From assembly GCA_964356225.1 (NCBI GenBank), contig CAYHGA010000003.1, positions 266-64,265 of the forward strand: a DNA stretch of 64,000 nt, given 5' to 3'. Made by a program: the position numbers and the translations under genes. Positions 5,930 through 21,705 of this stretch are shown here, piece after piece (within the stretch, counting starts at the first letter, position 1; each line of letters starts with the position of its first letter). The notes under the pieces are model-generated. The model searched no databases and was not told the DNA's origin. It was given only the letters and a program-made list of their open reading frames with translations. The stretch comes from an uncultured Gammaproteobacteria bacterium. Its GTDB lineage: Bacteria; Patescibacteriota; Microgenomatia; CAZETR01; Amesbacteraceae.

Positions 5930-7115
5930 ACTCTGGGTGTCCCAGATGTTATCTCAAGTGAGCATAAACATCATGAATTTTTACGTTGTAACCCGCATTT
6001 TTTCCCTAACCAGCTCTACCACTGCCGTATCGCTGATGTGGATTGCCGGAGCTTTGCCCTGTCTGCTTTTTGCCCCATTCTCCGGCCCGGTCGTGGACGG
6101 CGTCAGTAAACGCAAGTCCATGATTGTCACTAATTTGCTTCAAGCTGCCAGCATCTCCCTCCTCTTTTTTGTTTCTAAGCCCTTCTCTTTTTATTCCGTG
6201 GTCTTTTTGTACTGGTTCTTTGACCAAATCTATATGCCCAGTCAGCAAGCCGCTATTCCCCAGTTAGTGGACAAGAAATTATTACCTGCGGCCAACGGCC
6301 TATTTTTACTCACCCAACAAGCCTCATTACTGGTGGGGTTTGGCTTGGGAGGCCTGCTCATCACCACTCTCGGCAATACTATCACCATCGCTTTTGCCAC
6401 TCTCAATTTAATTATTGCTGCCATTGCGGTCTTTTTCCTGCCCCACGACGCCCCCAAAACGGGATTGCGGGACAAAAGCCCGCTCAAATTCTGGAAAGAT
6501 CTCTCTGTCGGTTACAAATTCATCAAAGACCACCGTGTTGTCATGCTTCCCTTACTTCTAATCGTCTGTACCCAAGTCTTCATTTCCATCACCACAGTTA
6601 TTTTGCCCACCTATACCCACTCCGTTTTGCACATGCAGTTTAGCCGGGCCGCTGTCATGCTAATAGTCCCTGGAGCCCTTGGCGCCCTTTTAATGACCTA
6701 TTTAATTCCCAGGTTTCTCAAACGCTACCGTAAAAAAGATCTTATTCAAGCAGGACTGGGAATCGGAGGAACTGTCCTTTTGCTCCTGTCCGTTATTAAA
6801 TGGTTTCCCTTCGGCCAATTGCTAATCGCCATTCTGGCCGCCATTGGCTTAGGAGTTTCTATCGCCGCCATCACCGTTCCCGCCCAAACTCTGGTTCAGG
6901 AAAAAACTCCCACCTGGATCCGCGGCCGGGTCTATAGCCAGCTTAATTTCCTGATGATTATGGCCACCGCCCTGCCTTTGTTTATCGTCGCCTCGCTTGC
7001 CGACGCCTTAGGAGTTGTCACCATTATGGCCACTTTCGGAATTTTGTTATTAGCCGTTTTTATTTTTATCCGCAAGAAAGGAGACTATGTCCTGGCAAAC
7101 GGTTTTGGGATTTGA
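5904..7115 (+). CDS. multi-pass membrane protein, MFS-like transporter
   Basis: About 12 hydrophobic segments. It is inserted between gatA and gatB. Confidence 0.5.
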   Translation: MFANRNFLKLWVSQMLSQVSINIMNFYVVTRIFSLTSSTTAVSLMWIAGALPCLLFAPFSGPVVDGVSKRKSMIVTNLLQAASISLLFFVSKPFSFYSVVFLYWFFDQIYMPSQQAAIPQLVDKKLLPAANGLFLLTQQASLLVGFGLGGLLITTLGNTITIAFATLNLIIAAIAVFFLPHDAPKTGLRDKSPLKFWKDLSVGYKFIKDHRVVMLPLLLIVCTQVFISITTVILPTYTHSVLHMQFSRAAVMLIVPGALGALLMTYLIPRFLKRYRKKDLIQAGLGIGGTVLLLLSVIKWFPFGQLLIAILAAIGLGVSIAAITVPAQTLVQEKTPTWIRGRVYSQLNFLMIMATALPLFIVASLADALGVVTIMATFGILLLAVFIFIRKKGDYVLANGFGI

Positions 7116-8292
7116 AGTCCACATTGAGCTCTCTACCGCCTCAAAAATGTTTTGCGGTTGTCCTGCAGATCATTTCGGCAAAGCTCCTAATACCCAAGTC
7201 TGCCCGGTTTGTTTGGGCTTGCCCGGAGCTCTTCCGGTCCCCAACGCCCGCGCCATCGAGTGGTGCGTCAAGTTAGGTCTAGCTCTAGGCTGCGACATAA
7301 ATCTTTTCTCTAAATTTGACCGCAAAAATTATTTTTACCCTGATCTGCCCAAAGGCTATCAAATCAGTCAGTATGACCTTCCCTTTTGCAAAAATGGTCA
7401 GCTTCTTGGTCATAAAGTCACCCGGGTGCACCTGGAAGAAGACACCGGCAAACTTCAGCATTCCGGTTCCGAAACTCTCATCGATTTTAATAGAAGCGGC
7501 GTACCCTTAGTCGAAATTGTCACCGGCCCGGATTTTATTTCTTCGGATGACGGAATCCTATTTTTAAAAGAAGTCCAAGCTATCGTCAGAGCTTTAGGTA
7601 TATCCAGCGCTGATATGGAGAAGGGATCGATGCGTTTGGAGGCGAATATTTCAATCAGACGATCAGGCTTATCTGACCTTCCGAATTATAAAGTCGAGAT
7701 AAAAAATGTTAATTCTTTCAGATTTATAAAAAAAGCAATTGATTTTGAAGTAGCTCGGCAAATTCAATTACTTGAAGCGGGTCAAACCCCGGTTCAGGAA
7801 ACCCGCGGCTTCAAAGAATCCACAGGAGAAACTGTCAGTCAGCGTCTCAAAGAAGAAGCCAACGATTACCGTTATTTCCCGGAACCGGACATTCCCCCGC
7901 TTCAATTCACTAAACTGCAAATCGAAGTCTGGCGTTCTGAACTTCCGGCACTCCCGGCTCAAGTTCGCCAAGAGCTTATTACAAAATATCAACTATCGCC
8001 CCAATACGCCGTGATCATAAGTAGCGACCAGAGCATGTATGTCCAGTTTCTGAAAAATCCCTCCAAAGCCACAGCCGATGCCTTGGTCAATAAACGGCCA
8101 TTACAAACCGGCTCAACCGTCAAAATTGACCCCGAAGTAGTAAGCCGAATTTTAGCCGCTAATCCCAAAGCCGTGGCCGATTTTAAATCCGGCAAACAGC
8201 AAGCTCTCTTCTTCCTCATCGGCCAGATCAAAAAAGAACTAGGCGATATTGACATAGCATTGACACAAATGATGATCAGTGACATAGTATAG
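7087..8292 (+). CDS. gatB: Asp/Glu-tRNA amidotransferase subunit B
   Basis: The N-terminus GFEVHIEL...CGCP...CPVCLGLPGALP is characteristic of GatB. Confidence 0.85.
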   Translation: MSWQTVLGFEVHIELSTASKMFCGCPADHFGKAPNTQVCPVCLGLPGALPVPNARAIEWCVKLGLALGCDINLFSKFDRKNYFYPDLPKGYQISQYDLPFCKNGQLLGHKVTRVHLEEDTGKLQHSGSETLIDFNRSGVPLVEIVTGPDFISSDDGILFLKEVQAIVRALGISSADMEKGSMRLEANISIRRSGLSDLPNYKVEIKNVNSFRFIKKAIDFEVARQIQLLEAGQTPVQETRGFKESTGETVSQRLKEEANDYRYFPEPDIPPLQFTKLQIEVWRSELPALPAQVRQELITKYQLSPQYAVIISSDQSMYVQFLKNPSKATADALVNKRPLQTGSTVKIDPEVVSRILAANPKAVADFKSGKQQALFFLIGQIKKELGDIDIALTQMMISDIV

Positions 8293-8294
8293 AC

Positions 8295-8516
8295 ATGTTA
8301 ACTAATTCCGATTTGATAAAAATTGGATCACTCCTTGATAGTAAATTAGACGCTAAACTCGAGAAAAAATTATCCCCAATAGCTAAATCAATTAGAAAGA
8401 TTCAAAAAGACATGAAAACAGTTGTAAATTACTTTGACGCAGAATATTTAAACCACGACTCTAGAATAAGAAAAATAGAAGCTCATATAGGATTCCAACC
8501 ACCAATTTCAATTTAA
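8295..8516 (+). CDS. hypothetical small protein
   Basis: 73-aa ORF between gatB and dnaE with a coiled-coil-like K/E-rich composition. Confidence 0.3.
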   Translation: MLTNSDLIKIGSLLDSKLDAKLEKKLSPIAKSIRKIQKDMKTVVNYFDAEYLNHDSRIRKIEAHIGFQPPISI

Positions 8517-8555
8517 CCGGAAACAGCGGTTAATCCGCTGAGAACAAGGTCCAGT

Positions 8556-11500
8556 ATGTCAGCAAAATTCGTACATCTCCACGTTCACACCGAATATTCT
8601 CTCCTTGACGGCCTGTCCAAAATTTCCCGTCTGGTCCGCCGGGCTAAAGAGCTGGAAATGCCGGCCGTGGCTCTTACCGATCACGGAGTCATGTACGGAG
8701 CAGTTGAATTTTACAAAGAATGTACCAAAGAAAGCGTTAAACCCCTGATTGGCATGGAGGCCTACGTAGTAAACAGGAATCATACTGAAAAGGCCGGCAA
8801 AGGCGAAAATAATCATTTACTGCTCCTGGCCGCAGACCATCAGGGATATCAAAATCTGATGCGCTTGTCTACCATTTCCCATCTCGAAGGTTTTTATTAC
8901 CGTCCTAGGTTCGACAAAGAAACCCTTGTTAAATATCACCAAGGTCTTATTTGTACGTCAGCCTGTCCCAAAGGCGAAATCGCCCAGCTTCTTAATGAAA
9001 ATTCATTCGCCTTGGCCGCAGAAGCCGTAACCTGGTACCAACATCTTTTCGGCGACCGCTACTATTTGGAGATTCAACGCCATCAGTTTGAGGATTATTT
9101 CGATTCGGTTAAGAATAACTCCCGCCTGCTGGATAAACTTCAAAATATGGCCAAAACCGAAAAAATTTGGGTCGACGGTGTTGTCAAATTAAGTAGAGAT
9201 TTAGGTATCAGGTTAGTAGCCACCAACGACGCCCATTATCTGCAAAAAACCGATGCCCCCGCCCAGGACGCCCTAGTCTGCATTTCCACAGGTAAAAATA
9301 CGTCAGATATTGACCGCCTGCGTTATATTGACACCCCCACCTTTCACCTCCGTTCACCGCAAGAGATGGAAAGTATTTTTCCAGATTTTCCCGACGCTTT
9401 AAAAAATACTCTTGCTGTAGCAGAACAATGTGACGTTAAAATCGAGCTGGGCAAATGGTATTTCCCCAACATTGATCTCCCCCCAGGTCTGACGGCCACA
9501 CAGGCATTACAGGAAATGGCTCACAGCAAAACTGATCAGCTGCATGCCAAACGCCTGGAGTATGAGTTGAAAGTTATCTGCTCCAAAGGATACGCTCCCT
9601 ATTTTTTGATGATGGCCGATCTGGTCAATTGGTGTACCGATCATGGAATTATTACCAACACCAGAGGCTCCGCAGCCGGTTCTCTGGTCTCATACGTCAC
9701 CGGAATTACGACCGTCGATCCCATTTTGTATGATCTGCCTTTCGAGCGTTTTCTCAATCCTTTCCGTCCTTCGCCTCCGGATATAGATCTGGATGTGGCC
9801 GATGACCGGCGGGAAGAAGTAATTGCCTATATTACCCACAAATATGGCAGCGAAAAAGTAGCTCAAATTTGTACTTTTGGCCGGATGCTGGCCCGGGCAG
9901 CCGTCCGCGACGTGGCCCGGGTCCAGGGACATCCGTACGCCTTCGGGGACCGCATCGCCAAAGTTATTCCCCTGGGTTCCCAGGGTTTCCCCATGTCTAT
10001 CGAGCGGGCTCTCAAAGAATCCCCGGAGCTAAAAACCATGTACGACTCTGATCCTCAAGTAACAGAAACTGTGGACCTGGCCCGCCAGATCGAAGGCAAC
10101 GCCCGCCACGTCTCTGTGCACGCCGCCGGCATGGTCGTTTCGCCCGAAGCCATGACCAACTACACCCCCCTCCAGCTCGAACCCAAAGGCACCAAAATCA
10201 TCACTCAATATGAATTCCACGCCTGTGAAGAAATTGGCCTGGTTAAATTCGACATCCTGGGTATCCGCAACTTGTCTATTTTAGGGGCCGCTCGCGACCT
10301 CATCGAGAGCTTGCATCACATTACGCTCGATCTGAAACATCTGCCAGCCAACGACAAAGCCACTTTTGCCATGCTCACCCGCGGCGAAACCATGGGAGTG
10401 TTTCAACTGGGGGGCAGCGGCATGACCAAATGGCTCAAGGAACTTAAACCCAACCGTCTGGAAGATATCATGGTCATGATCGCTCTCTTCCGTCCCGGGC
10501 CTATGGCCAATATTCCCGAATACATCGCCCGCAAAAATAAAAAATCTCCAGTCACCTACATGCATCCTAAAATGGCCGACTACTTGGAGAAATCCTATGG
10601 AATCCTCGTCTACCAGGAGGATATTATGTTTACTGGTCTGACATTGGCCGGCTACACCTGGGAAACCATCGATAAGCTGCGTAAAGCCATCGGCAAAAAA
10701 TTGCCCAAAGAAATGGCCCAACAGCACGAAGTCTTTGTAGAGGGTTGTATCAAAACGTCGGGCATGAGCCGGGAAGAAGCCGAAAAAATTTGGGAGTTAT
10801 TCGTGCCTTTCCAGGGTTATGGTTTCAACAAGGCCCACGCCGCTTCTTATGGCATAGTCGCTTACCAAACCGCCTATCTTAAGGCCCATTATCCTGTAGA
10901 ATACATGACCGCTCTCCTGACAGCCGAATCGGGAGATACCGAAAAAATCGTGGAGGCCATTGACGAATGTCGGCGCATCAAAATTCCCGTTTTGCCGCCG
11001 GATATCAACCGTTCAAACGTGGGTTTTGCGGTAGATGATAAATCAATCCGCTTCGGTCTATCCGCCATTAAAAACGTCGGCGCAACCGCCATTTCTTCCA
11101 TTCTCACCGCCCGGGCTTCCAACCCATTTACCAGCTTTACTGATTTTTGTCTCCGGGTTGACTCCCAAAAAGTCAACCGTAAAGTTTTGGAAAGCTTAAT
11201 TAAGGCCGGGGCCATGGACCAATTCGGCAAGCGGGCCGCCTTACTTGCCGCCCTGGATAAAATCCGCGAATTGGGAACCAGTATTAGTAAACTCAAATCC
11301 TCCGGGCAAACCACCTTTTTTGTCTCCTCCGAACAATCCGACCATTCCGACCGGCTTCCCAACATTGATGAATTCGAAAAATCGGTTATGCTGAATATGG
11401 AAAAAGAACTCTTGGGCTTTTATTTAACCGAACATCCTCACGCCGAGAAACTAGCCCAACTTGGACAGCTCATTACTCACCGCATTAGCGAGCTTCCTTC

Positions 11501-12047
11501 CGGCAATCTCTCAGGGCTTAGGGTCACTATCGGCGGCATTATTGAATCCTGCCGCAACGTCATCACTAAAAACGGTAACCAGCCCATGTGCTTCTGCAAA
11601 GTCTCGGACCTAGGCAAAAGCGTGGAAGCGGTAGTTTTCCCCAAAACCTATGCCGCCACCCCCGGCGTCTGGCAGCCGGACAATTTAGTTCTTCTTTCCG
11701 GCAAAGTAGAAATGCGCGACACATCTCCCGAAGAAGCCACCGCGGATTCGCCCGGGCCGGATATCACCATCATCGTGGACTCGGCCGCCATCTTTACCGG
11801 TTCCGACACCAAACTTACTATGAACCATGAACCAAAAACTAATAACTCTATTTCCATCGAGATTCCCAAAAATCTGCCTTCTTCCAAGCTGGTCGCTCTC
11901 AATTCTCTGCTTCAATCGCACCGCGGCCGCACCCCTGCCAGTCTGATATTTTACAAAGGCTCGTCCTCCCAGACTCTACCCCTGCCCTACGGCCTGGATT
12001 GGACACCAAAATTGGCCGACCAAATCAACGAGTTGTTAAAAAGCTGA
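8556..12047 (+). CDS. dnaE: DNA polymerase III alpha subunit
   Basis: 1163 aa with an N-terminal PHP domain (HLHVHTEYSLLDG), polymerase core, and OB/tau-binding C-terminus. Confidence 0.95.
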   Translation: MSAKFVHLHVHTEYSLLDGLSKISRLVRRAKELEMPAVALTDHGVMYGAVEFYKECTKESVKPLIGMEAYVVNRNHTEKAGKGENNHLLLLAADHQGYQNLMRLSTISHLEGFYYRPRFDKETLVKYHQGLICTSACPKGEIAQLLNENSFALAAEAVTWYQHLFGDRYYLEIQRHQFEDYFDSVKNNSRLLDKLQNMAKTEKIWVDGVVKLSRDLGIRLVATNDAHYLQKTDAPAQDALVCISTGKNTSDIDRLRYIDTPTFHLRSPQEMESIFPDFPDALKNTLAVAEQCDVKIELGKWYFPNIDLPPGLTATQALQEMAHSKTDQLHAKRLEYELKVICSKGYAPYFLMMADLVNWCTDHGIITNTRGSAAGSLVSYVTGITTVDPILYDLPFERFLNPFRPSPPDIDLDVADDRREEVIAYITHKYGSEKVAQICTFGRMLARAAVRDVARVQGHPYAFGDRIAKVIPLGSQGFPMSIERALKESPELKTMYDSDPQVTETVDLARQIEGNARHVSVHAAGMVVSPEAMTNYTPLQLEPKGTKIITQYEFHACEEIGLVKFDILGIRNLSILGAARDLIESLHHITLDLKHLPANDKATFAMLTRGETMGVFQLGGSGMTKWLKELKPNRLEDIMVMIALFRPGPMANIPEYIARKNKKSPVTYMHPKMADYLEKSYGILVYQEDIMFTGLTLAGYTWETIDKLRKAIGKKLPKEMAQQHEVFVEGCIKTSGMSREEAEKIWELFVPFQGYGFNKAHAASYGIVAYQTAYLKAHYPVEYMTALLTAESGDTEKIVEAIDECRRIKIPVLPPDINRSNVGFAVDDKSIRFGLSAIKNVGATAISSILTARASNPFTSFTDFCLRVDSQKVNRKVLESLIKAGAMDQFGKRAALLAALDKIRELGTSISKLKSSGQTTFFVSSEQSDHSDRLPNIDEFEKSVMLNMEKELLGFYLTEHPHAEKLAQLGQLITHRISELPSGNLSGLRVTIGGIIESCRNVITKNGNQPMCFCKVSDLGKSVEAVVFPKTYAATPGVWQPDNLVLLSGKVEMRDTSPEEATADSPGPDITIIVDSAAIFTGSDTKLTMNHEPKTNNSISIEIPKNLPSSKLVALNSLLQSHRGRTPASLIFYKGSSSQTLPLPYGLDWTPKLADQINELLKS

Positions 12048-12068
12048 ATCTCAGGTAAAATTCACGGC

Positions 12069-12404
12069 ATGGCAATTAGTGCGACTATCAAAGGCACTCC
12101 AGTCCACGTCGGCGACATCGTCCAAGTGCATCTCAAAGTCGTGGAAGGTGAAAAAGAGCGCATCCAGATTTTTGAAGGCATGATTCTAGGTATTCGCGGC
12201 AGGGGAGACAACCACACTTTTACTGTCCGCAAGGTTTCTTCCGGCAATATCGGCGTCGAACGCATCTTTCCCCTTATTTCACCCTGGATTGTCAAAATTC
12301 AGGTAAAGAAACCGGGCAAAGTCCGCCGTGCTAAACTAAACTATGTCCGTGACCAGTCTTCCCGTCAAGTTAGCCGTATTACTGCTGTTAGCCAGTCTGC
12401 TTAG
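12069..12404 (+). CDS. rplS: 50S ribosomal protein L19
   Basis: The sequence [32 protein letters not shown] is L19-like. Confidence 0.85.
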
Positions 12405-13983
12405 GCTGTGGAATTTAGGAATTCTCCCTAACGGTCTGCATTGGGATGAAATGGATACCGGCTACCAGGCCTACTCCCTCTTAAAAACTGGCAAGGATTA
12501 TTTTGGCAACGTTCTCCCGTTTTTTCCCCATTCATTCGCCGACTACCGTACTCCCGTCTTTATCTACTCCGCTGTACCTTTTGTTGCCTCTTTAGGTTTA
12601 TCCGCCGTCTCCGTTCGCTTAGTCGCCGTCGTTTGGGGTTTACTAAGCATCGTTTTAATTTATCTTTTGGTCCGCGATTGGCTGGCCCCGGCCGTTATGA
12701 CTTTCTCGCAATGGCATCTGCAGTACTCTCGCAAATCTGTAGAAACCATGTCTCTGACTGCCACCTTTCTTCTGGGCTTGGTTTGTTTCCAGCGTGGTCT
12801 GCGCCAGCCCAAGTGGCTCATTTTTTCGAGCTTTGGTTTCGGCTTGGCCATGGCCGCCTATTCCCCCGGCAAACTCTTTGTGCCTTTATTTCTCGTCGTC
12901 CTGATCCTCATAAATCATAAATCATTATTTCTGATTCAGCGCAAATATTTACTGGCGTCAGCTTTGATTCTGGCTCTTTTTGGAGCGGCAATCTTTGGTG
13001 ACATTCTTTTTGGCAAATCCGGCACCCGTTTCCACGATGTAGCCATCTTTACCGACCCCACAATTTCTACAGAAATTAATTACCAGCGCCAGCTCTCCGC
13101 CGAGTCGTCCGGACGGCCCCGGACGGTGGGCATGAGTCCCAGTCTTTTTGATAAATTACTGCACAACAAGCCTCAAGTCTGGATTAACGCTTTTCTTACT
13201 AATTACCTGCGCACCTGGGGAACTGATTTTCTCTTTGTCAAAGGCGATCCCGAGCTTCGCCACTCGCCCTCCCGAGATTCCATCGGCATGCTGCACATGG
13301 TGGAAATCATTCCCCTTCTGGTTGGTCTTTTCGTCTTACTAAAAACTAATAACCAACTAACCAAACTTCTAGGTGCCTGGTTGTTGCTGGCTCCAATTCC
13401 GTCAGCTTTAACCCGTGACGGAGGAGTTCATGCCGCCCGCCTGCTTATTCTCTTTCCCGCTCTGGCCTGGACCATCACTCTAGGCATTCGCCGCCTGCCT
13501 CTCAAACTCTATCTCCTCTTATTCTCAATTTCTAGTTTCTATATTTTCGGTTATTACTTCACTCATTACCGCTTCGAAAGCGCCAAACCCTATCAATGGG
13601 GTTATTCCGACCTGATCAGGACCGCCCTGGCCAGGCAAGACCAATACGACCGGGTGATTATTGACGTGGCCCACGATTCACCGCTCATGGCCTATTTATT
13701 CGTAACCAAATTTTCTCCCCAACACCTTCAAGCTTTCTACCCGCTCCAGGAACAAATTTTGACAGGGGACAGCCGGGCCTTAGTCTTTGGCAAAATATGG
13801 CTTCTACAACCCGGTGGCCGCAACTGGACTGATATCACTCTTCCCGGCCGCAATCTAATCCTAGCCTCCGCCGACCAATCCCTGCTTGAACGCATTCCCG
13901 GCGCTACTCGCATCAACTACCCCGACTCTCTCGCCGCTTTCTACGTCTTCGAAAAATCCTCACCACTTGCAATTAGTAAGTGA
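12343..13983 (+). CDS. GT39/ArnT-like membrane glycosyltransferase (PMT family)
   Basis: Many TM helices and a DE motif in the first loop (HWDEMDTGY), as in the PMT/ArnT family. Confidence 0.6.
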
Positions 13984-14003
13984 AACTACTATAACCAAAT
14001 AAA

Positions 14004-15092
14004 GTGATCAAAGCGCTGGCAGTATTAATCATCTTGATTCTCTCCCTTCTAATTATACGTCGAGTAGTCCTCCGTCGGGAAGCAACCAGCCAAGTAACTC
14101 CTACTCCTCAAACCTCCCAGCCATCTAAATTTACCTTTAAGAACGCAAAGCCTTCTCCTGCTCCCCAAACCAAATTTACCGCTGCCAATCCCTTCGGCGT
14201 CATGATTTCGGGAGACTCTTCGCAAATCAAAGCCCAGACGGCCAAAAAATTGGGAGCAGTGTATTACCGGCCCATTTCAGTTTTCTTGGATAAATGGTCT
14301 GGAACATGTGCAGAATGTGATGCGGCAGTCAGCGGGGGGTTAAAACTTGTTTTGACGGTTAGAAATAACAACGGAGGTCCACAAAATCCTACAACCCCGC
14401 CTACAGATTTGAATACCTATAAAACCAAGTTATCTCAAGTCGTGGACAAATACAAACCTGAAGTATTGATTATCGAAAACGAGGAGAATTCCGCCGCTCT
14501 TTTTTATAACGGAACGGTTCAACAGTATTTACAAGAACTAAAAGCCGGTTGTGAAGTCGCTCACCAAAAAGGTATTAAATGTGCCAACGGCGGTTTAGTA
14601 AGTTCTTTAGTTGTGTTTCTGGTATCAGAAAACTATAAGGCCAACGGAGATACAAATAAGGCAGATGAGTATTTGGATCGCGCTCTGATCGGCGCAAAAC
14701 AACAGTTAATTTCGCAGGTTAATTCAAAAAAAGGCCAAGAACAGATTACCAAAGGCAAAGAACTCTTGGCTGGCTACAAAACCGCAGGGGCAGATTTTAT
14801 GAACTTTCACTGGTATACAGCTGACATCGAAGCTTTAGGTGAGGCAGTAGGTTATTTACGAGCCGCTTCAGGATTGCCGATCATGACTAATGAAGTTGGC
14901 CAACAAGCCAACACCGACCCAAACCAAGTATCAAACGTTATGCAAAAGATAGTTAATTTAGGTCTACCGTACGCATTATGGTTTAGTATGGATACTAATC
15001 CTCCAAATGGAGCCAGAGCGCTAAACGAAACCAACGGCACTCTTCGTCCCAATGGCGAAGCTTACGCCGAATTTATCCACTCCAACTATTAA
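14004..15092 (+). CDS. membrane-anchored secreted protein, possible glycoside-hydrolase-like domain
   Basis: N-terminal signal anchor, Pro/Thr-rich linker and an (IENEEN)-containing globular domain. No firm family assignment. Confidence 0.4.
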   Translation: MIKALAVLIILILSLLIIRRVVLRREATSQVTPTPQTSQPSKFTFKNAKPSPAPQTKFTAANPFGVMISGDSSQIKAQTAKKLGAVYYRPISVFLDKWSGTCAECDAAVSGGLKLVLTVRNNNGGPQNPTTPPTDLNTYKTKLSQVVDKYKPEVLIIENEENSAALFYNGTVQQYLQELKAGCEVAHQKGIKCANGGLVSSLVVFLVSENYKANGDTNKADEYLDRALIGAKQQLISQVNSKKGQEQITKGKELLAGYKTAGADFMNFHWYTADIEALGEAVGYLRAASGLPIMTNEVGQQANTDPNQVSNVMQKIVNLGLPYALWFSMDTNPPNGARALNETNGTLRPNGEAYAEFIHSNY

Positions 15093-15096
15093 ATCC

Positions 15097-15260
15097 TTGT
15101 GAACGTTTTTAATAAAATTCGAACTCATTTTAAACAAAAGTTGGCTCGAACTTCTTTTTAATGAATCGGCGGCTCTCGGCGAATTTGAATTTGGTCTTTA
15201 GGGCGCTCGCAACGGGCGGGGGCGTTGCGAGCGCCCCACCTTGCGAATCTTCGATTTCTT
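15097..15260. repeat. composite repeat R1 (AT-rich module + module b/c + 14-bp perfect GC hairpin 15201-15235)
   Basis: Positions 15097-15140 resemble the start of R2 (gtgaacgttttt..attcgaac). Positions 15140-15205 are an approximately 65-bp direct repeat of 19831-19896 with 3 mismatches. The hairpin is GGGCGCTCGCAACG-GGCGGGG-CGTTGCGAGCGCCC. Confidence 0.8.
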
Positions 15261-15344
15261 TTTTGGTGATCCCGCTAGTACCTTAAACAGACTTGGAATA
15301 TGCTTATTTGTTTGGGCTAAAAAATGCATAATAAAGTACATCAA

Positions 15345-16379
15345 CTATTTTTCTTTTAATACGTAATAACTTGCTTTGCCTTTGCCTTTTCTGCTGATTA
15401 AACCCAGCTCTATTAATTTCTTAATATCCAGTGCTCTAGTCGCCTTTGCCCGATCAACTAATTTAGCATAATCACGGTGAGCGATAAATCCTTTCTCTCT
15501 TATAAATTCAAGGATTTTTAAATGATAGGGTTGCAGCTGAGTTTCTGGATTTATTCCAACCTCTGGAAGCATTTTTTGAACTCTTAAAAGTTCGTCAATA
15601 ATTCCTTCCGTAAAATATTCCATCCAATCTGTAAAATCAATTTTATCTGCCAATTCATAATAATTGCCAAATTCTCCAATAGTTTGAAAATATTTACTAA
15701 CATTTTTGTTATAGTAATTCTCAAAACTAAACAGGTTAAATGTATTGAGTCCCATTTCAGCCAGTAATACCTTTGTGGCAAGACGAGTTGCCCTGCCATT
15801 TCCATCCATAAAAGGATGGATTATTACCATTTGCTTGTGAAAAATCCCAGCTAAAATAAGCGGATCAATTTTATCTTTATTGCTATTTATAAATTTAATT
15901 AGATCTTCTAAAAGTTTTCTTACATCTTTCGTATCAGGAGGCAAATAAATAACCTTTCTGGTCCTAGGATCATTTACAACTACTGGTTTGTCTCTTAATT
16001 TTCCAGATTCAAATTTAGGTAGTAATTCCTTTGTAATCTGTTCATGGATTTTTAGAATAAGAGCAAGAGTTAATCTTATTTGCTCTTTTTCAAGCTTTTC
16101 ATTTAAGTCTTGAAGTGCATGGTTGTAGTTTAAAACTTCTTTCTCACTATCCCTAATATGTTCAGGTTTTAATTTAAGAATTTTTTTTACTTCAGTTAAA
16201 GGTAGAGGGTTACCTTCGATACTGGTTGAGGCATAAGTTGAAACCGCTCTTGCAACTTTTTCGAATTCTAATAAGACAACATGAGGAAATCTTTTATCGT
16301 TTAATTCGTTCACTAGAGTATTAATTCTCTTAATATTAGATAGGAGACGATCCGTAATGGTGTATTTTGGCTGAAACAT
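15345..16379 (-). CDS. Fic/DOC family protein (AMPylase-like), class II with N-terminal inhibitory motif
   Basis: Fic motif HPFMDGNGRATR. The N-terminal STSIEGN matches the (S/T)xxxE(G/N) inhibitory motif. Confidence 0.85.
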   Translation of the reverse strand: MFQPKYTITDRLLSNIKRINTLVNELNDKRFPHVVLLEFEKVARAVSTYASTSIEGNPLPLTEVKKILKLKPEHIRDSEKEVLNYNHALQDLNEKLEKEQIRLTLALILKIHEQITKELLPKFESGKLRDKPVVVNDPRTRKVIYLPPDTKDVRKLLEDLIKFINSNKDKIDPLILAGIFHKQMVIIHPFMDGNGRATRLATKVLLAEMGLNTFNLFSFENYYNKNVSKYFQTIGEFGNYYELADKIDFTDWMEYFTEGIIDELLRVQKMLPEVGINPETQLQPYHLKILEFIREKGFIAHRDYAKLVDRAKATRALDIKKLIELGLISRKGKGKASYYVLKEK

Positions 16380-16391
16380 ATACTCTAATTA

Positions 16392-16559
16392 TAGACGAAT
16401 ATTAGACGATTTACAAGGAGTAAAATTTCGATCCTCGTGACCAAGATGGATCAGAAATCCGTCCTCAATATTCCCCTCAAGCATTTCAAATTCATACCTT
16501 TTATCTTCCTCCTCATAAAGTTCCGGTCCCCTCAAAGGAAGCTCGGAAGGAACTCTCAT
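16392..16559 (-). CDS. small ORF (about 55 aa) immediately upstream of fic, possibly co-transcribed
   Basis: Manual translation gives MRVPSELPLRGPELYEEEDKRYEFEMLEGNIEDGFLIHLGHEDRNFTPCKSSNIRL. Its stop lies 13 nt before the fic start. It is shorter than the ORF-track cutoff. Confidence 0.3.
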
Positions 16560-16594
16560 TTAACTTCTTTTATCTATTTTTAACAATTGTTAAC

Positions 16595-16706
16595 TTGTGA
16601 ACGTTTTTGAACAAATTCGAACGTATTTCAAGTCAAACTGTTAGCTCGCCCCGCCTTGGCGAGGCTCGCAATGTGAGCGCGGCGCCCCCCACCCGCCGCG
16701 CTTCCG
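16595..16706. repeat. repeat R2, left arm of a 112-bp perfect inverted repeat flanking the MFS gene
   Basis: Positions 16595-16706 are the exact reverse complement of 18199-18310. It contains GC hairpins (GCGCGGCG-CCCCCCACC-CGCCGCGC). Confidence 0.9.
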
Positions 16707-16772
16707 TTATTTTTTGCGCGCTCGATTCTTCTCTCACTTCGTTCGAGATATGATTTTTGATATAGTGATTGT

Positions 16773-17972
16773 ATGCTAAACAACTTTAAGGGCATTACTT
16801 GGCGTTATTACGTTTTTTCTTTTCTTGCGGGATTATCTTTTTATACCGCCGCCTTAATCCCATTTTATACTAATTGGGGACACATTTCACTAACTCAAGT
16901 CCAATTCCTACAAGCATGGTTAATGTTTTGGGCTTTTGTTTTGGAAGTACCAACTGGGGTTATTGCAGATAAGTTCGGAAGAAAATATTCAGTTGCTTTA
17001 GGTTGTCTACTAACTTTCTTCTCGTTTTTGATATATGGCTCGTTTCCTAATTTTTCAGCTTTTCTCGTTGCAGAATTTTTGGCAGCTGCTGGTATGGCTC
17101 TAATGTCTGGAGCAAGTGAAGCTCTGCTATACGATTCTTTAAAAGATGAAAATAACGAAAGCAAATTTAAAAATATTTTTGGTCGGTCATTCTCTATTGG
17201 TCAAATAGCGGCAATTATTTCTGCGCCTGTTGGTGGTTTTATCGCATCTAAGTACGGTTTAAATGCTCCGATGTTGTTTACAGCGTTTCCAGTTTTAATT
17301 GCTTCCATAATTTTAGTAACTGCAAAAGAGCCATCACAAAAATATTCAAAATCAGAAAAGAAAAATTATTTAGATATTGCGAGAAACGGCGTATCTTCTT
17401 TTATTCATCATAAAGTACTAAGGTCATTGGCTTTCAACGGAATTTTGGTTTATACAGGGGTTTACTTTTTAGTATGGCTCTATCAACCCATACTACAAAA
17501 TTTGGGTGTTGCAATAATATTTTTCGGATTTATCAGAGCGTTATTCTCTTTGTCAGGAATGGTTTTTAACCATGACTTACAGCTTATTGAAAAACTATTT
17601 GGATCAAATAAACAATTTTTTAATATAACCGCAGTTTTAACTACGATATCCTTATTATTAGTTGCCGTATTCCCAAATATTATTACAGTTTTAATGGCGA
17701 TTGTTTTATTGGGTGGATTAGGTCAGGCAAGATTTACTGCATTGAATTCGTATATGAACCACCACATAGTCTCAGAACAACGCGCGACAACGTTATCAAC
17801 TATTTCAATGTTAAATAGAATTGTTCTAATTGCATTAAATCCTCTGATTGGATTCATGGCAGATCAATCAATAAGAGGAGCATTTCTATTTCTAGCATTT
17901 TTACCATTATTGGCCATTATCTTTGTTCCTATAGATTTGTATAAAAACACTACAGAGACGGTAACTTCATAA
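16773..17972 (+). CDS. MFS transporter
   Basis: 399 aa with about 12 TM helices and MFS-like motifs (GVIADKFGRK). Confidence 0.75.
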   Translation: MLNNFKGITWRYYVFSFLAGLSFYTAALIPFYTNWGHISLTQVQFLQAWLMFWAFVLEVPTGVIADKFGRKYSVALGCLLTFFSFLIYGSFPNFSAFLVAEFLAAAGMALMSGASEALLYDSLKDENNESKFKNIFGRSFSIGQIAAIISAPVGGFIASKYGLNAPMLFTAFPVLIASIILVTAKEPSQKYSKSEKKNYLDIARNGVSSFIHHKVLRSLAFNGILVYTGVYFLVWLYQPILQNLGVAIIFFGFIRALFSLSGMVFNHDLQLIEKLFGSNKQFFNITAVLTTISLLLVAVFPNIITVLMAIVLLGGLGQARFTALNSYMNHHIVSEQRATTLSTISMLNRIVLIALNPLIGFMADQSIRGAFLFLAFLPLLAIIFVPIDLYKNTTETVTS

Positions 17973-18198
17973 GTTTGACGTAAGAAAAATTATTTCTATT
18001 GTTTTTGTAAAATTATTTTTGTATATTGTAAGTGTACTCAACTTTTTCAGGTCGTCTTTTTTAATGGCCGTTCTGGACAATTTAAGGCGACTTAAGTTGA
18101 GTACAACCAGAGCGGCCATTTGAGTTTAGTAATAAGTACTTTAAAATTTTTGCGTTTTTCTTTTTCTGCTTTCAGCGGAATGTTCGAGCCGACTTTTT

Positions 18199-18310
18199 CG
18201 GAAGCGCGGCGGGTGGGGGGCGCCGCGCTCACATTGCGAGCCTCGCCAAGGCGGGGCGAGCTAACAGTTTGACTTGAAATACGTTCGAATTTGTTCAAAA
18301 ACGTTCACAA
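18199..18310. repeat. repeat R2', right arm of the 112-bp inverted repeat
   Basis: Reverse complement of 16595-16706. It is preceded at 18160-18198 by a diverged module-b copy (aaaagtcggctcgaac). Confidence 0.9.
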
Positions 18311-18407
18311 TTTTGGAAATGGAAGCAGAAGTGGGGGCAGCGCTGGCTGCGCCCCCCTCCGCAGACAGCGCTGCAAAGGCCAAATCCAAATTCGCCGAGA
18401 GCCGCCG
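18305..18407. repeat. repeat R3, left arm of a 103-bp perfect inverted repeat flanking the recombinase gene
   Basis: Positions 18305-18407 are the exact reverse complement of 19858-19960. It contains the hairpin GCAGCGCTGGCTGCG-CCCCCCTC-CGCAGACAGCGCTGC and overlaps R2' by 6 bp. Confidence 0.9.
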
Positions 18408-18462
18408 TAAAAAAAGCATGAAGAAAAACGCAAAAATTAAAGAACTTTAAGGAATATAAAAA

Positions 18463-20004
18463 ATGATTAAATATATTGCTTACTGCCGAAAATCCACAGA
18501 TGAAAAAGATAAACAGGTTTTATCTATTGAAGCGCAAATTGCCGAACTCAAGGAGTTTGCCAAAAGAGAGGGCTTAACGGTCTCTGAATTCATTACAGAA
18601 GCCAAGACTGCTAAGATTCCGGGGAGAGTACAATTTGCTGAAATCTTAAAAAGAATAGAGAAAGGACAAGCCAACGGAATATTATCGTGGCACCCCGACC
18701 GTCTCGCTAGAAATTCGATAGATGGCGGGAAAATAATTTATCTTTTGGATACTGGCAAACTCCTTGATTTAAAATTCCCCTCGTTTTGGTTTGAGTCCAC
18801 ACCACAAGGCAAATTCATGCTCTCAATCGCCTTTGGCCAATCAAAATATTATGTCGATAATCTGTCCGAAAATGTAAAGCGAGGAAACAGACAAAAACTT
18901 CGTAATGGTGTCTGGCCCAGTAAAGCACCGTATGGCTATATCAATAACCCCAAAACGAGGGGAATAGATATTGATGAAGAAAAATCAAAAATTGTTAAAA
19001 AATCATTTCAGCTTTTTGCTGATGGAAGTATTTCTTTTACGGCTATTTCTCAATTTATGTTTAAGTTTGGGATTAAGCGAGAAGGAGAAAAACCTGTAAA
19101 AGTTGGTCAAGTTAAAAATATGCTTGCCAATAAATTTTATCTGGGAATTCTCAAATACGCCGGAGAATATTATCAAGGTTCACACAAAACCTTTATCAGC
19201 AAAAAGCTGTTTGACGAAGTTCAAAAACAAGTTGAGAAAATCGAGCGACCAAGACAAAAAGGCCACAATTTCGCTTTTGCAGGTCTGGCGACCTGCGGCG
19301 AATGCGGCGCCGCAATCACGGCGGAACAACATATAAAGAAATACAAAAACGGCACCGGCCAAACTTTTATCTATTACCGCTGTACTAAAAAGTTGAAAGC
19401 CTGTACGCAAAAATATATTTCCGAATCAGATACAGAGGAGCAGTTAAGAAAAATTGTTCGTGATTGCGGCTTGCATGAAGGCTGGGAACCGTATTTTGAA
19501 AAATGGATCACCGAAGCCGAAGAAAAAGACAAACTGACCGCCGAAACGGAAAGTAAAAAACTCGATACCCAAACCCAAGAAACAGAAATCAAATTAAACC
19601 GATTGCTTGACGGCTACCTCGACCAAGTTATTGAGCCGGATATTTACAAACAAAAGAAAAATGAATTATTTGACGAAAAACTGAAGTTAGAGGAGAATAA
19701 ATCACAAATTGAGAAAAATGGAAGTTGTTGGCTCGAACCTATGAGGGAATTCGTAAATTGCGCCTTGCAGGCGCAAAAAATCGCGCGCGCAAAAAATAAT
19801 TGCCATGATTTATCAATCATGGCAAAAAAAGTCGGCTCGAACTTCTTTTTAATGAATCGGCGGCTCTCGGCGAATTTGGATTTGGCCTTTGCAGCGCTGT
19901 CTGCGGAGGGGGGCGCAGCCAGCGCTGCCCCCACTTCTGCTTCCATTTCCAAAATTGTGAGGCGGGTGGGACTCGAACCCACGACCCTTAGCTTAAAAGG
20001 CTAG
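18463..20004 (+). CDS. large serine recombinase (resolvase/invertase-type N-domain + recombinase domain + zinc ribbon)
   Basis: Catalytic-serine region YCRKSTDEKDKQ, recombinase domain and zinc ribbon CGECG...CTKK. The ORF has no stop until it has read through repeat R3' and into tRNA-Lys (C-terminal ...VGLEPTTLSLKG), so the true C-terminus is uncertain, roughly 19830-19900. Confidence 0.85.
   Translation: MIKYIAYCRKSTDEKDKQVLSIEAQIAELKEFAKREGLTVSEFITEAKTAKIPGRVQFAEILKRIEKGQANGILSWHPDRLARNSIDGGKIIYLLDTGKLLDLKFPSFWFESTPQGKFMLSIAFGQSKYYVDNLSENVKRGNRQKLRNGVWPSKAPYGYINNPKTRGIDIDEEKSKIVKKSFQLFADGSISFTAISQFMFKFGIKREGEKPVKVGQVKNMLANKFYLGILKYAGEYYQGSHKTFISKKLFDEVQKQVEKIERPRQKGHNFAFAGLATCGECGAAITAEQHIKKYKNGTGQTFIYYRCTKKLKACTQKYISESDTEEQLRKIVRDCGLHEGWEPYFEKWITEAEEKDKLTAETESKKLDTQTQETEIKLNRLLDGYLDQVIEPDIYKQKKNELFDEKLKLEENKSQIEKNGSCWLEPMREFVNCALQAQKIARAKNNCHDLSIMAKKVGSNFFLMNRRLSANLDLAFAALSAEGGAASAAPTSASISKIVRRVGLEPTTLSLKG
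19858..19960. repeat. repeat R3', right arm of the 103-bp inverted repeat
   Basis: Reverse complement of 18305-18407. It is preceded by module b at 19824-19857 and overlaps the 3' end of tRNA-Lys at 19958-19960. Confidence 0.9.
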
Positions 20005-20030
20005 TGCTCTACCAACTGAGCTACCGCCCC
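19958..20030 (-). tRNA. tRNA-Lys (anticodon UUU)
   Basis: The minus-strand sequence GGGGCGGTAGCTCAGTTGGTAGAGCACTAGCCTTTTAAGCTAAGGGTCGTGGGTTCGAGTCCCACCCGCCTCA folds as a cloverleaf with anticodon loop CTTTTAA. No CCA is encoded. Confidence 0.8.
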
Positions 20031-20058
20031 TCACTGAACTTATCAAGAGCATTTTATA

Positions 20059-20316
20059 TCAAACTTGTCTCTTTATAAACTCACGACCTCTAAACGACTT
20101 AAGTTGCTTTTCACGAGACAACGCCTCGTTTCTAGACCCAAAAACTTCTTTATAAACAAGACTCCAATTTCCACGATTGATTTTAGTATAACTTCTCTTA
20201 CTTGAAATCAATTCACCATTGTGTCTTTTAAGTCGCTTTTCCAAATTACTGGTCTGGCCTATATAGATTTTTCCACTTTTGTTCTTAATAACATAAACTA
20301 CAAATACTTTCTCCAT
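20059..20316 (-). CDS. small GIY-YIG nuclease, YhbQ/UPF0213-like
   Basis: 85 aa with VYVIKNKSGKIYIGQTSNLEKRLKRHN (GIY-YIG). The start codon abuts the shared CTTTTAAGCT anticodon-loop segment of the disrupted tRNA-Lys copy. Confidence 0.8.
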   Translation of the reverse strand: MEKVFVVYVIKNKSGKIYIGQTSNLEKRLKRHNGELISSKRSYTKINRGNWSLVYKEVFGSRNEALSREKQLKSFRGREFIKRQV

Positions 20317-20343
20317 AGCTTAAAAGTCCGCCAGCTGGCGGAT

Positions 20344-20365
20344 CTACCAACTGAGCTACCGCCCC
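20344..20365 (-). pseudogene. 5' fragment (nt 1-22) of a second, disrupted tRNA-Lys copy
   Basis: The first 22 nt are identical to the 5' acceptor and D-arm of tRNA-Lys(UUU). Then a 16-bp palindrome TCCGCCAGCTGGCGGA replaces tRNA nt 24-31, followed by the conserved CTTTTAAGCT and the GIY-YIG ATG. Confidence 0.65.
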
Positions 20366-20417
20366 TCACTGAACTTATCAAGAGCATTTTATATCAAACT
20401 TGTCTCTTTATAAACTC
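20344..20417. repeat. 74-bp perfect direct repeat (copy B) of 20009-20082 (copy A): tRNA-Lys 5' part plus 52 bp of upstream flank
   Basis: The string ctaccaactgagctaccgcccctcactgaacttatcaagagcattttatatcaaacttgtctctttataaactc occurs twice, bracketing the GIY-YIG gene. Confidence 0.9.
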
Positions 20418-20500
20418 TCTCTCGCTTGAAGCGGCCAATCAGAGTTTGAAATCGTTGTCGCGTGGATATTAAAAAACTGATAAAATTGACCTATCCATCC

Positions 20501-20572
20501 GGCTCGATCGTCTAACGGCTAGGACGCGGGGCTTTCATCCCCGCAATCGGGGTTCGATTCCCCGTCGAGTCA
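20501..20572 (+). tRNA. tRNA-Glu (anticodon UUC)
   Basis: GGCTCGATCGTCTAACGGCTAGGACGCGGGGCTTTCATCCCCGCAATCGGGGTTCGATTCCCCGTCGAGTCA; anticodon loop CTTTCAT. Confidence 0.8.
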
Positions 20573-20575
20573 CCC

Positions 20576-21211
20576 ATGAAAGTCTTTCTTGTCAGGCACG
20601 GGCGGTCCGCAGACCGTGAAGCTAAAGTTCGCCAATCATTAAACACTCCTCTTTCCCAATCCGGGATCAATCAGGCACAAGCCGTAGTCGACAGACTCAA
20701 ATCTGAGGAAATTGACATCATTTATTCCAGTCCCTATCTCAGAGCCGCGCAAACAGCTGAAATAATATCTAAAGGGCTAAATCTTCCCCTGCAAGTGCAT
20801 GATCTTACCAGAGAATTAGCCCGGCCCTCTATGGACGGTTTAGATTATCAGGATCCTTTGAATCTCGAGTTTATGAATCAGCTTAAAGAAAACCTTTTTA
20901 ACATAGATTGGAAGTTTCCTGCAGATAGTGAATCATTCAGAGATGTTGCGGCCAGGGCTAGTAAGTTCAGAGATTTTCTTATATCAAGCCCCTTAGAGCA
21001 AAATATATTAGTGATCTCCCACGGTTTTCAAATCACCTGTTTTATTGGTGTGTGTATATTAGGAGATAATTACGATCCACTTACGTTTATGAAACTTGTA
21101 CGCTCTTTATCTATCGAAAACACTTCCATTTCAGAAATGGAATATTTCCCCGAAGATAAACGTTGGAAAGTAAAGCTCATTAATGATCATTTACACATCC
21201 AGGGTATATGA
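20576..21211 (+). CDS. histidine phosphatase family protein (phosphoglycerate-mutase-like)
   Basis: N-terminal RHG motif (LVRHGRS) and the SHG region. Confidence 0.7.
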   Translation: MKVFLVRHGRSADREAKVRQSLNTPLSQSGINQAQAVVDRLKSEEIDIIYSSPYLRAAQTAEIISKGLNLPLQVHDLTRELARPSMDGLDYQDPLNLEFMNQLKENLFNIDWKFPADSESFRDVAARASKFRDFLISSPLEQNILVISHGFQITCFIGVCILGDNYDPLTFMKLVRSLSIENTSISEMEYFPEDKRWKVKLINDHLHIQGI

Positions 21212-21705
21212 AAATCCTAGGTATAGATCCTGGCACAGCCACTACAGGATTTGGAGTGATTGAAACCACTCCGAACGGCTATCTTCTCCTGGATTACGGA
21301 CTGGTGTCCACTGACAAAAAACAAGCCCATGGCCTCCGCTTGGACCTCATCTATAAAGGCATTTCCGGGGTTATCACCAAGCACTCGCCAGAAGTTGTAG
21401 CCATCGAACGCCTGTTTTTCGCCACCAACGCCTTAACTGCCATTGCCGTAGGTCAGGCCATCGGGGTCATTAAATTAGCCGTCCACCATGCCGGCCTGCC
21501 CATTTTTGATTACGCTCCCATGCAAGTCAAAATGATTATTACAGGCTCCGGTAAAGCCGACAAGAAAGAAATCAAATCCACTATCAAAAAAATATTTAAA
21601 ATCCGGGAAAAAAGGGGGCAAAAAGCCCATTTTGACAATTCCGCCGACGCCTTAGCCATCGCCATTTGCCATGCTAAAAAAACTTCTGCTGTTGCTCGCC
21701 CTTAG
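21208..21705 (+). CDS. ruvC: Holliday junction resolvase RuvC
   Basis: MKILGIDPGTATTGFGVIE and the catalytic acidic residues. Confidence 0.85.
   Translation: MKILGIDPGTATTGFGVIETTPNGYLLLDYGLVSTDKKQAHGLRLDLIYKGISGVITKHSPEVVAIERLFFATNALTAIAVGQAIGVIKLAVHHAGLPIFDYAPMQVKMIITGSGKADKKEIKSTIKKIFKIREKRGQKAHFDNSADALAIAICHAKKTSAVARP

Follow-up and report, generated by a model that had tools for sequence, protein, structure and literature searches.

We analysed a 64,000-nucleotide stretch of DNA (hereafter, the window) from contig CAYHGA010000003.1 of a member of the Amesbacteraceae (Patescibacteriota). In it, a gene for a transporter of the major facilitator superfamily (MFS) and a gene for a large serine recombinase (int, encoding Int) lie next to a tRNA-Lys(UUU) gene, within an element that we named E1. 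The initial annotation had described the MFS gene as flanked by a perfect inverted repeat, and a repeat search of the whole window confirmed that positions 16595-16706 and 18199-18310 are exact reverse complements over 112 bp; because it is perfect over this length, a chance occurrence in 64 kb was ruled out. In its full extent this repeat (IR1) covered 16592-16706 and 18199-18313 (115 nt, 99% complementarity), the arms being 1492 nt apart. Nothing else in the 64 kb was comparable except an adjoining repeat that had been overlooked (IR2, 18305-18407 and 19858-19960, 103 bp, 100% identical), with the recombinase gene between its arms. The left arm of IR2 shares 6 bp with the right arm of IR1 (TCACAA at 18305-18310), and the right arm of IR2 is the 3' end of the recombinase open reading frame (ORF) and touches the 3' end of tRNA-Lys(UUU).

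Three sites at this locus share one core, TTGTGA, with swapped flanks. With A denoting the 112-bp P' arm, b the 103-bp P arm and X the host flank of the first site, they read X/A (S1), b/A in inverted orientation (S2) and b/tRNA (S3). As read from the sequence, flanks swapped around a common core are the signature of site-specific recombination, and we accordingly labelled the sites by their likeness to attachment (att) sites. The features of E1 and its target are listed below; M-start and M-end denote the backbone at the cargo segment's two ends.

16595-19960, plus strand: whole element E1 (3366 bp), comprising an attL-like site, cargo, RNA, an internal attP-like site, int and an attR-like site
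16595 (start), plus strand: S1, attL-like site (host X / core / P'), core TTGTGA at 16595-16600
16595-16706, plus strand: left arm of IR1, P' arm A of S1; the core, then the conserved ACGTTTTTGAACAAATTCGAAC, then two GC-rich hairpins
16707-16772, plus strand: M-start backbone, TTATTTTTTGCGCGCTCGATTC and a small hairpin, kept here in nearly all relatives
16773-17972, plus strand: cargo gene, MFS transporter of 399 aa (PF07690, E=1.4e-29)
18020-18120, plus strand: extended -10 element (promoter-like; TGTATATT at 18020-18027) and pseudoknot RNA
18145-18198, plus strand: M-end backbone, AATTTTTGCGTTTTTC at 18145-18160, a variable small hairpin, and GTTCGAGCCGAC(T)5 at 18182-18198
18199-18407, minus strand: S2, complete internal attP-like site (P, core, P'), matched on the minus strand by the hidden Markov models (HMMs) of both arms
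18463-20004, plus strand: large serine recombinase of 513 aa with Resolvase, Recombinase and Zn_ribbon_recom domains
19858-19960, plus strand: right arm of IR2, P arm b of S3 (repeat search, sequence, arm HMM)
19955-19960, plus strand: S3, attR-like site (P / core / tRNA 3' end), core TTGTGA
19957-20030, minus strand: target tRNA-Lys(UUU) (ARAGORN; Rfam tRNA, 73 bits)

Sites, recombinase and tRNA target

The middle site S2 is made up of the reverse complement of A (18199-18310) and the reverse complement of b (18305-18407), which have the core TCACAA in common, and its arms showed imperfect dyad symmetry about the core. The P'-arm HMM, whose consensus was drawn from 31 aligned elements, also matched S1 at 16597-16639 (E=1.9e-10). 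Hybrid sites with the attP core and swapped arms were likewise found in at least 25 relatives, with cores reading GTGA, GTGC, GC or GTGG. At its outer ends E1 has A (left) and b (right), which do not form an inverted repeat. The element lies in a low-GC island (15.1-20.0 kb; G+C 0.33-0.42, compared with 0.45-0.52 in the host flanks). Within it, the MFS gene is placed 66 nt past the left arm of IR1 and 226 nt ahead of the right arm, and the recombinase ORF starts 152 nt past the right arm, each within a few nucleotides of the spacing first reported (67, about 225 and 150, respectively). The suggested link between IR1 and the adjoining recombinase was also upheld, in that the right arm is half of a complete recombination site abutting the recombinase gene. 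An insertion sequence or composite transposon was considered and rejected, given that there is no transposase, the outer ends are non-inverted and the insertion is site-specific at tRNA ends.

The window derives from a 69.6-kb contig of a Hainich groundwater metagenome (well H52, ERZ1292616), and we compared it with contigs of the same population from other samples. One contig (L004, ERZ1292621) equals window positions 13954-18197 and reproduces the junction from host DNA into A and the MFS gene; another (L002, ERZ1292622) equals 18256-20082, resumes at 20343, and reproduces the order rcA/B-recombinase-b/tRNA, where rcA is A reverse-complemented. Three further contigs (L011, L013, L014) span X/A, and one (L008) is precisely the inner unique segment, 16707-18198. 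All contigs of this population that span an arm have the orientation of the window. Contigs frequently broke within the arms, as would be expected of repeats longer than the assembler k-mer.

Int has a resolvase catalytic domain (PF00239, residues 5-151, E=2.9e-20), followed by a Recombinase domain (PF07508, residues 172-259) and a zinc ribbon (PF13408, residues 272-327). The closest solved structure was that of SPbeta SprA/YokA (E=9e-18, Int residues 4-416 aligned), to whose catalytic region the Int N-terminus AYCRKST aligned. Curated models of the CcrA/B/C and XisF subfamilies (NCBIfam) scored Int at 63-97 bits against cut-offs of 375-900, and the Mpi/invertase model gave it 19.7 bits, with a cut-off at 272; nor does Int have the form of a small invertase of ~190 aa with a helix-turn-helix (HTH) domain. 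Int scored under all curated subfamily cut-offs and was placed in a separate clade. A search of 2.9 million viral contigs returned no relatives of Int, and a phage origin was rejected on this ground.

The int gene and the attachment sites overlap. The last 35 conserved Int codons lie within P arm b, and the ORF then crosses the core and stops antisense inside the tRNA gene, with the tail ...SKIV/RRVGLEPTTLSLKG followed by the stop. A 52-aa minus-strand "gene" at 18261-18419 proved to be the duplicated C-terminal part of Int running into A, with the tail ...SKIV/NVFEQIRTYFKSNC followed by the stop. Two motifs from the 3' coding part of the recombinase, AAATCGCGCGCGCAAAAAATAA and AAAAAGTCGGCTCGAAC (19776-19842), recur inverted at the start (16707-16730) and the end (18182-18198) of the cargo segment, and these recurrences may be traces of the original inverted duplication. 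The TTATTTTTTGCGCGCTCGATTC motif of M-start is the reverse complement of 19778-19795 within the recombinase ORF.

At the target, the final acceptor-stem bases of tRNA-Lys are the core, and the discriminator A and the CAA at the CCA position are contributed by the P arm; thus, the tRNA stays whole, because the P arm brings the discriminator A and a CCA-like end. The same geometry was found in relatives: in 27 of 30, a minus-strand tRNA gene starts no more than a few bp from the b end, and at least 16 tRNA species are targeted, among them Lys (UUU, CUU), Glu (CUC, UUC), Arg (GCG, UCG), Val, Leu (CAG, CAA), Tyr, Pro, Trp, Gln, Ile (UAU, GAU) and Ser. The minimal core common to all three sites is GC or GA, inside GTGA, GTGC or GTGG, and corresponds to the last two acceptor-stem bases. 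Most Int tails contain ...G[FIL]EP..., which is antisense T-arm sequence, and the P' arm holds AAATTCGAAC, resembling the T-loop region. The distance from TCGAAC to GTGA was 16 nt in P' arms compared with 12 nt in tRNA flanks. Large serine integrases reportedly read attP and attB half-sites with a shifted zinc-ribbon motif, and the offset of TCGAAC may, as a lead drawn from this analogy, be the same kind of half-site shift. The host-side arm X is not conserved among relatives; in three of them (L031, L018 and L033) it holds the next tRNA of the array, which indicates that S1 is a true host junction.

Conservation and variation across the element family

A search for Int homologues gave 7937 significant matches among 8000 candidates scored, including dozens that were 80-90% identical and 500-604 aa long, with variable tails. 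We confirmed 227 loci when one genome per species was scanned, and more than 578 in metagenomes of the Joint Genome Institute (JGI); 80 of the genome loci and 80 of the JGI loci were fetched. All 80 genome loci came from Patescibacteria, mostly Microgenomates, with hosts among the Woese-, Gottesman-, Shapiro-, Roizman-, Levy-, Davies-, Collier- and Beckwithbacteria and WWE3. Paired abutting inverted repeats were recovered by self-BLAST in 35 of the 80 genome loci, where contigs were long enough. With the arm HMMs, the pattern P'+ ... (P- P'-) INT> P+ was recognised in most of the 80 (~50 beyond the self-BLAST set) and in ~75 of the 80 JGI loci. The layout holds down to ~55% Int identity, and in all 31 curated relatives the arms abut with an overlap of 2-11 bp. 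A single Woesebacteria genome, MGGS01, carries at least five family members (L018, L029, L050, L056 and L062) at different tRNA genes; because their recombinases are 62-92% identical to the query, these are distinct elements rather than copies of one.

The paired arms resembled each other far more than they resembled the arms of other elements. Within an element, the median arm identity was 98.9%, and 12-13 of 31 elements had perfect arms; between elements the identity was 61-66% (88% for the best other element), and for each of the two arms, 30 of 31 elements had their own partner arm as the closest match. This gap, together with a layout that persists to ~55% Int identity, argues for concerted evolution and not for recent duplication. 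Thus, of the causes first put forward for the perfect identity of IR1, gene conversion or recombination between the arms was retained, now as a family-wide process, and very recent duplication was dropped.

The cargo, in contrast to the backbone ends, which are kept, differed in nearly every relative and lay on either strand. Examples in relatives were MFS, EamA, carbon-nitrogen hydrolase, aldo-keto reductase, methyltransferase, an HTH protein, a protein with a twin-arginine translocation (TAT) signal and a 1362-aa surface protein, in cargo segments of 583 bp to 7.4 kb. The MFS protein of E1 was weakly similar to efflux pumps of the Tet(40)/TetA(P) type, far under the cut-offs. When it, the neighbouring Fic protein and a 56-aa ORF were sought in 80 loci, only weak MFS matches were recovered, on either strand. 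These results bear out the idea that the MFS gene is mobilisable: it is passenger DNA, replaced by other cargo in nearly all relatives, and for the same reason IR1 is not specific to MFS regulation. Because cargo matches between loci were so weak, orientation was scored by backbone motifs and not gene by gene; 80 of 84 cargo segments were in the standard orientation, three lacked markers, and one (L162) was flipped.

The backbone has constant features at both ends. TTATTTTTTGCGCGCGCGATTT comes directly after the left arm and is conserved across relatives. The end module of ~180 nt consists of the extended -10, the RNA, AATTTTTGCGTTTTTC, a hairpin and GTTCGAGCCGAC(T)5, and its AATTTTTGCGTTTTTC forms an inverted repeat with 18423-18438, just upstream of int. 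The RNA (18034-18120, ~90 nt) comprises two nested helices, P1 (18034-18042/18096-18104) and P2 (18048-18055/18087-18094), and an H-type pseudoknot helix, P3 (18063-18076/18107-18120), with homologues in 47 loci. In an alignment of 48 distinct homologues, tested against 500 shuffles, 91.7% of cells were paired compared with 75.3% in the shuffles (0 of 500 attained the observed value), and the covariation score was 0.429 compared with 0.175. The pseudoknot helix P3 was 99.6% paired, with seven pairs altered on both sides; shifting the partners by 1-3 columns lowered the pairing to 30-47%, and the fold z-score was -3.6. Conserved U.G pairs place the RNA on the plus strand, which is that of int. 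A comparison with Rfam gave no matches at E<=1. As possibilities for its role, we considered a leader of int, a riboswitch-like element and a cofactor of the recombinase.

Rearranged loci were rare. A tail search for Int homologues that read into A led to three of them. In L110, int reads into b/A beside M-end and the far arm abuts host DNA, and thus its int segment is flipped. A 3228-bp contig (L108) has the order B-int-b/A-M-start...M-end, a junction that could represent either an excised circle or a doubly flipped integrated form. The third (L109; JGI Ga0434945_000381, 6300-21542), at a syntenic tRNA-Lys/tRNA-Glu locus of a related organism, has two int modules facing outward around a single cargo module, and continues with another P'-like arm and then 9 kb of type I restriction-modification cargo. 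With V marking the int side, four junction types were seen: V-start/attP/M-end (standard), V-end/attP/M-start (L108), V-end/attP/M-end beside host DNA (L110) and V-start/attP/M-start (L162), and these are the four expected of a two-repeat circle and its isomers.

Solo or tandem P/P' sites or remnants occur upstream of several elements (L026, L122, L147-149, L177 and L179) and, as S0, in the window. This points to repeated insertion at one and the same tRNA end, by which older copies were displaced outward. The copy in the window is the following feature:

15097-15269, plus strand: degenerate remnant of an older element (172 bp), core and 37 nt of a P'-like arm, 84% identical to A

It continues into a stretch resembling the 3'-terminal part of the recombinase gene, and then into a P-like arm that ends in TTGGTGA. 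The arm HMMs matched it at 15099-15139 (P', E=7e-7) and 15207-15269 (P, E=2e-7), and it also belongs to repeat families D1, D3, I3 and I4. It sits at the outer edge of the island, where several assemblies break, and looks like a collapsed older element.

Between this remnant and S1, low-GC DNA encodes a Fic protein (15345-16379, minus strand, PF02661) and the 56-aa ORF (16389-16559, minus strand). In this module (15270-16594), arm HMMs and a motif search recognised neither arms nor backbone motifs. On the other side of E1, an 85-aa GIY-YIG nuclease ORF (20059-20316, minus strand) lies within a 335-bp insertion (region 20008-20417), bounded by a perfect 75-bp direct repeat made up of the first 23 nt of tRNA-Lys and 52 nt upstream. 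Within this population the insertion is a presence/absence polymorphism, since it is missing from the otherwise identical L002 and present in the window and in L100.

Proposed integration mechanism and alternative explanations

We propose that E1 is probably a site-specific integrative element at the 3' end of tRNA-Lys(UUU), that its circular form would bear two inverted attP copies, and that the MFS gene is cargo that can be exchanged. What we observed is the anatomy of the sites, the targeting of tRNA genes, the conservation of the layout, arms that evolve in concert, and the rare junctions of flipped or circle type. From these we infer the catalytic steps, the circle in this population and the reason that the internal attP is kept.

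In the proposed mechanism, the attP of Int would consist of the P arm (b, with the last 35 conserved int codons), the core and the P' arm (A, a mimic of the tRNA T-arm). IR1 would then be formed by the P' arms of S1 and S2, and IR2 by the P arms of S2 and S3. If S1 recombined with S3, a circle of 3.37 kb would be set free, in which two inverted 209-bp attP copies would separate the cargo segment (MFS gene and RNA) from the int segment. Int would insert these circles into almost any tRNA gene, at its acceptor/T-arm end, and rebuild the tRNA 3' end. Integration through one attP copy would put its A half at the left end and its b half at the right end and leave the other copy intact inside; the two abutting inverted repeats would follow from integration through one of two inverted attP copies. 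Occasional recombination or gene conversion between the attP copies would keep the arms identical and, rarely, flip either segment. Candidate purposes of the internal attP are a homogenising flip-flop in the style of the 2-micron plasmid, module exchange, autoregulation of int, and a switch with attR that needs no recombination directionality factor (RDF). As paths to the inverted attP duplication, we tried dimer integration, inversion against a second tRNA, and tandem insertion with deletion, and none gave the layout cleanly.

Several points weigh against this proposal. An empty attB was found neither in other assemblies by way of the flanking host proteins (a glycoside hydrolase-like protein at 14004-15092 and a His_Phos protein at 20576-21211), nor by joining the flanks of 48 elements and searching ~170 loci, where only P arms matched. 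There was no unambiguous circular contig, and the junction in L108 has the two readings given above. No Int of this population with an attP-context tail is on record, and there is none in its 90% cluster. In the smallest cargo segments (583-666 bp) we saw no conserved small ORF in the backbone, a structure- or profile-based search for an RDF not being part of this analysis; with no such factor identified, support for excision comes from the anatomy of the sites. Because no empty site, proven circle or directionality factor was found, excision and integration stay inferred from that anatomy and from the pattern across the family. Canonical large serine integrases are not known to recombine attP with attL, attR or attP, and in view of these restrictions flipping by Int is unproven; the rare flips could be explained by RecA-type recombination over ~100 bp. 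Finally, a single arrangement in ~98% of cases is unlike a freely flipping element of the 2-micron kind and needs either selection or a mechanistic asymmetry.

An extension of this proposal, which we regard as doubtful, holds that the internal inverted attP makes the element a self-contained machine free of any directionality factor, in which Int alone would flip the int segment and leave the junctions unchanged. The host-side B arm seems to have no part in targeting, as it varies among relatives and tandem copies accumulate at attR, and attR would on that view stay a usable partner of the internal attP. If this were true, int would in one state be transcribed from the backbone promoter by way of the pseudoknot leader and attP as an "operator", and stay low; in the other state, transcription would run in from the tRNA promoter and cause a burst. 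The symmetric ends would permit exchange of cargo modules by double site-specific recombination, and the family would represent a new control and diversification logic for serine-integrase elements, together with a new RNA class.

It is rather unlikely that the locus is instead a set of modular cassettes, in which cargo modules with P' at both ends and int modules with P at both ends are separate units that the recombinase joins, swaps and re-orients at the cores, much as in recombinase-mediated cassette exchange; the inverted repeats would then serve to let each module be exchanged and work in either orientation. The extreme diversity of cargo behind near-identical backbones (Int 85-90% identical) would be expected of such a system, as would the four module junction types, all observed, the arrays with multiple P'+ sites (L112, L059, L061, L079, and S0 with S1 in the window), and L109, with its one cargo module, two outward int modules, additional P'-like arm and 9-kb restriction-modification cargo. 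However, no free cargo-only or int-only module was found with host DNA on both sides, the arrangement is ~98% uniform, and the conservation of M-start, the RNA and M-end would permit a swap of cargo by ordinary homologous recombination.

The explanation that had first been suggested, a phase-variable inverton in which the recombinase would, as a matter of routine, turn round the 1.5-kb MFS segment between the 112-bp arms and so switch its expression relative to outside promoters, now appears improbable. In its favour, a perfect inverted repeat surrounds a complete gene beside a serine recombinase, the cargo is flipped in one relative (L162), and the inner segment assembles as its own contig in several samples (L005-L009; L008 equals 16707-18198), as a two-state segment or an unresolved repeat would. 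Such breaks, however, are simply explained by a repeat longer than the assembler k-mer, and the assemblies of this population had a single orientation at the arms. Only 1 of 84 cargo segments in the family was flipped compared with 80 in the same orientation, and the cargo genes themselves are unrelated between elements and occur on either strand. Each arm is one half of an att-like site, and the three-site system to which these sites belong takes in the recombinase gene and the tRNA as well. The recombinase is a 513-aa enzyme of the integrase type, not a Hin/Gin-type invertase of ~190 aa.

Equally improbable is that S2 is a regulatory duplicate, kept as an operator or insulator at which bound Int would autoregulate int and GC hairpins would stop read-through, with recombination being incidental. 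Its position fits such a role: S2 has the extended -10 and the leader RNA (18020-18120) on one side and the int ATG (18463) on the other, the conserved 16-nt inverted repeat 18145-18160/18423-18438 encloses it, and the orientation is nearly invariant. Nevertheless, an operator needs only ~50 bp, and the near-perfect 209-bp identity with the outer arms and the concerted evolution of the non-binding hairpin parts would go unexplained.

An assembly artefact, by which integrated and excised forms were mis-joined or a repeat was collapsed, is hardly conceivable: numerous short contigs do terminate inside the arms, but every junction recurs in independent samples and assemblers (L002, L004, L011-L014), more than 100 assemblies of unrelated studies have the layout, among them one whose record title reads "complete genome" (CP011210, L048), and the two different sequences before and after each arm copy mean that both contexts must exist in the reads.

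In a full-text search of open-access papers, neither this family nor any serine-integrase element that carries an inverted attP internally was found described, and the family, a large one in ultra-small bacteria of groundwater, is apparently undescribed. A site-specific integrative element is a known kind of element; what is unusual here is a serine integrase directed at tRNA ends, an internal inverted attP that is conserved, and the structured RNA, which is new. In a survey, serine integrases were not known to target tRNA 3' ends (PMC7192596). In ultra-small Patescibacteria (candidate phyla radiation, CPR), few mobile elements have been recognised, and this family is abundant there; because the passenger is different almost every time, it may be one of the chief ways in which these organisms exchange genes. 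To research on recombinases, the family offers a clade that targets the T-arm and acceptor end of tRNAs, an internal attP that can be tested in vitro, and a strongly covarying pseudoknot RNA beside S2. The very small integrases, with broad and predictable targets, are also of interest for genome engineering.

Comparison with known systems

Among invertible systems, the Hin/Gin/Cin/Pin invertons and shufflon-like systems resemble E1 in having a serine recombinase beside inverted sites and adjacent segments with a common middle site. In those systems the invertases are small, the sites measure 26 bp, a Fis-dependent enhancer is used, and either orientation is commonly seen; in contrast, E1 has an integrase-type enzyme, repeats of more than 100 bp, outer sites that are hybrids with host or tRNA DNA, and rare flips. 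Islands that target tRNA genes, such as the tycheposons, are similar as small cargo islands at tRNA 3' ends with remnants of tandem insertion and variable cargo. Unlike E1, tycheposons often carry replication genes, and an internal inverted attP has not been described for them; 910 of 937 tycheposons use tyrosine recombinases.

Tn4451 and Tn5397 (TnpX/TndX) are alike in their small size, large serine recombinase, circular intermediate and lack of an obvious separate RDF, but they are without long inverted repeats or an internal attP and target GA-containing joint-like sites instead of tRNA genes. The yeast 2-micron plasmid (FLP/FRT in 599-bp inverted repeats) and inverted-repeat genomes of the plastid type are comparable with the proposed circle, in that two long identical inverted repeats split two unique segments. 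The 2-micron plasmid is further alike in the recombinase site inside the repeats, concerted evolution and orientation isomers; E1, however, has a serine and not a tyrosine enzyme, is integrated in the chromosome, and belongs to a family in which one isomer accounts for ~98% of the observations. As to replication, E1 contains only int, the MFS gene and the RNA, and no replication functions.

In domains and site architecture, E1 is like the integrative elements with large serine recombinases, among them phiC31, Bxb1, A118, SPbeta SprA, CcrAB (SCCmec) and the XisF element, which share the combination of Resolvase, Recombinase and zinc ribbon, compact att sites of imperfect dyad symmetry with a short core, hybrid attL and attR, and int at one end. 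E1 differs from these in scoring far under the CcrB and XisF cut-offs, and its family in having no evident RDF gene in elements down to ~2.5 kb. It also stands apart in the many tRNA 3' ends that are targeted, in an attP that overlaps the int stop region, and in the second, inverted and complete attP that is retained inside the element.

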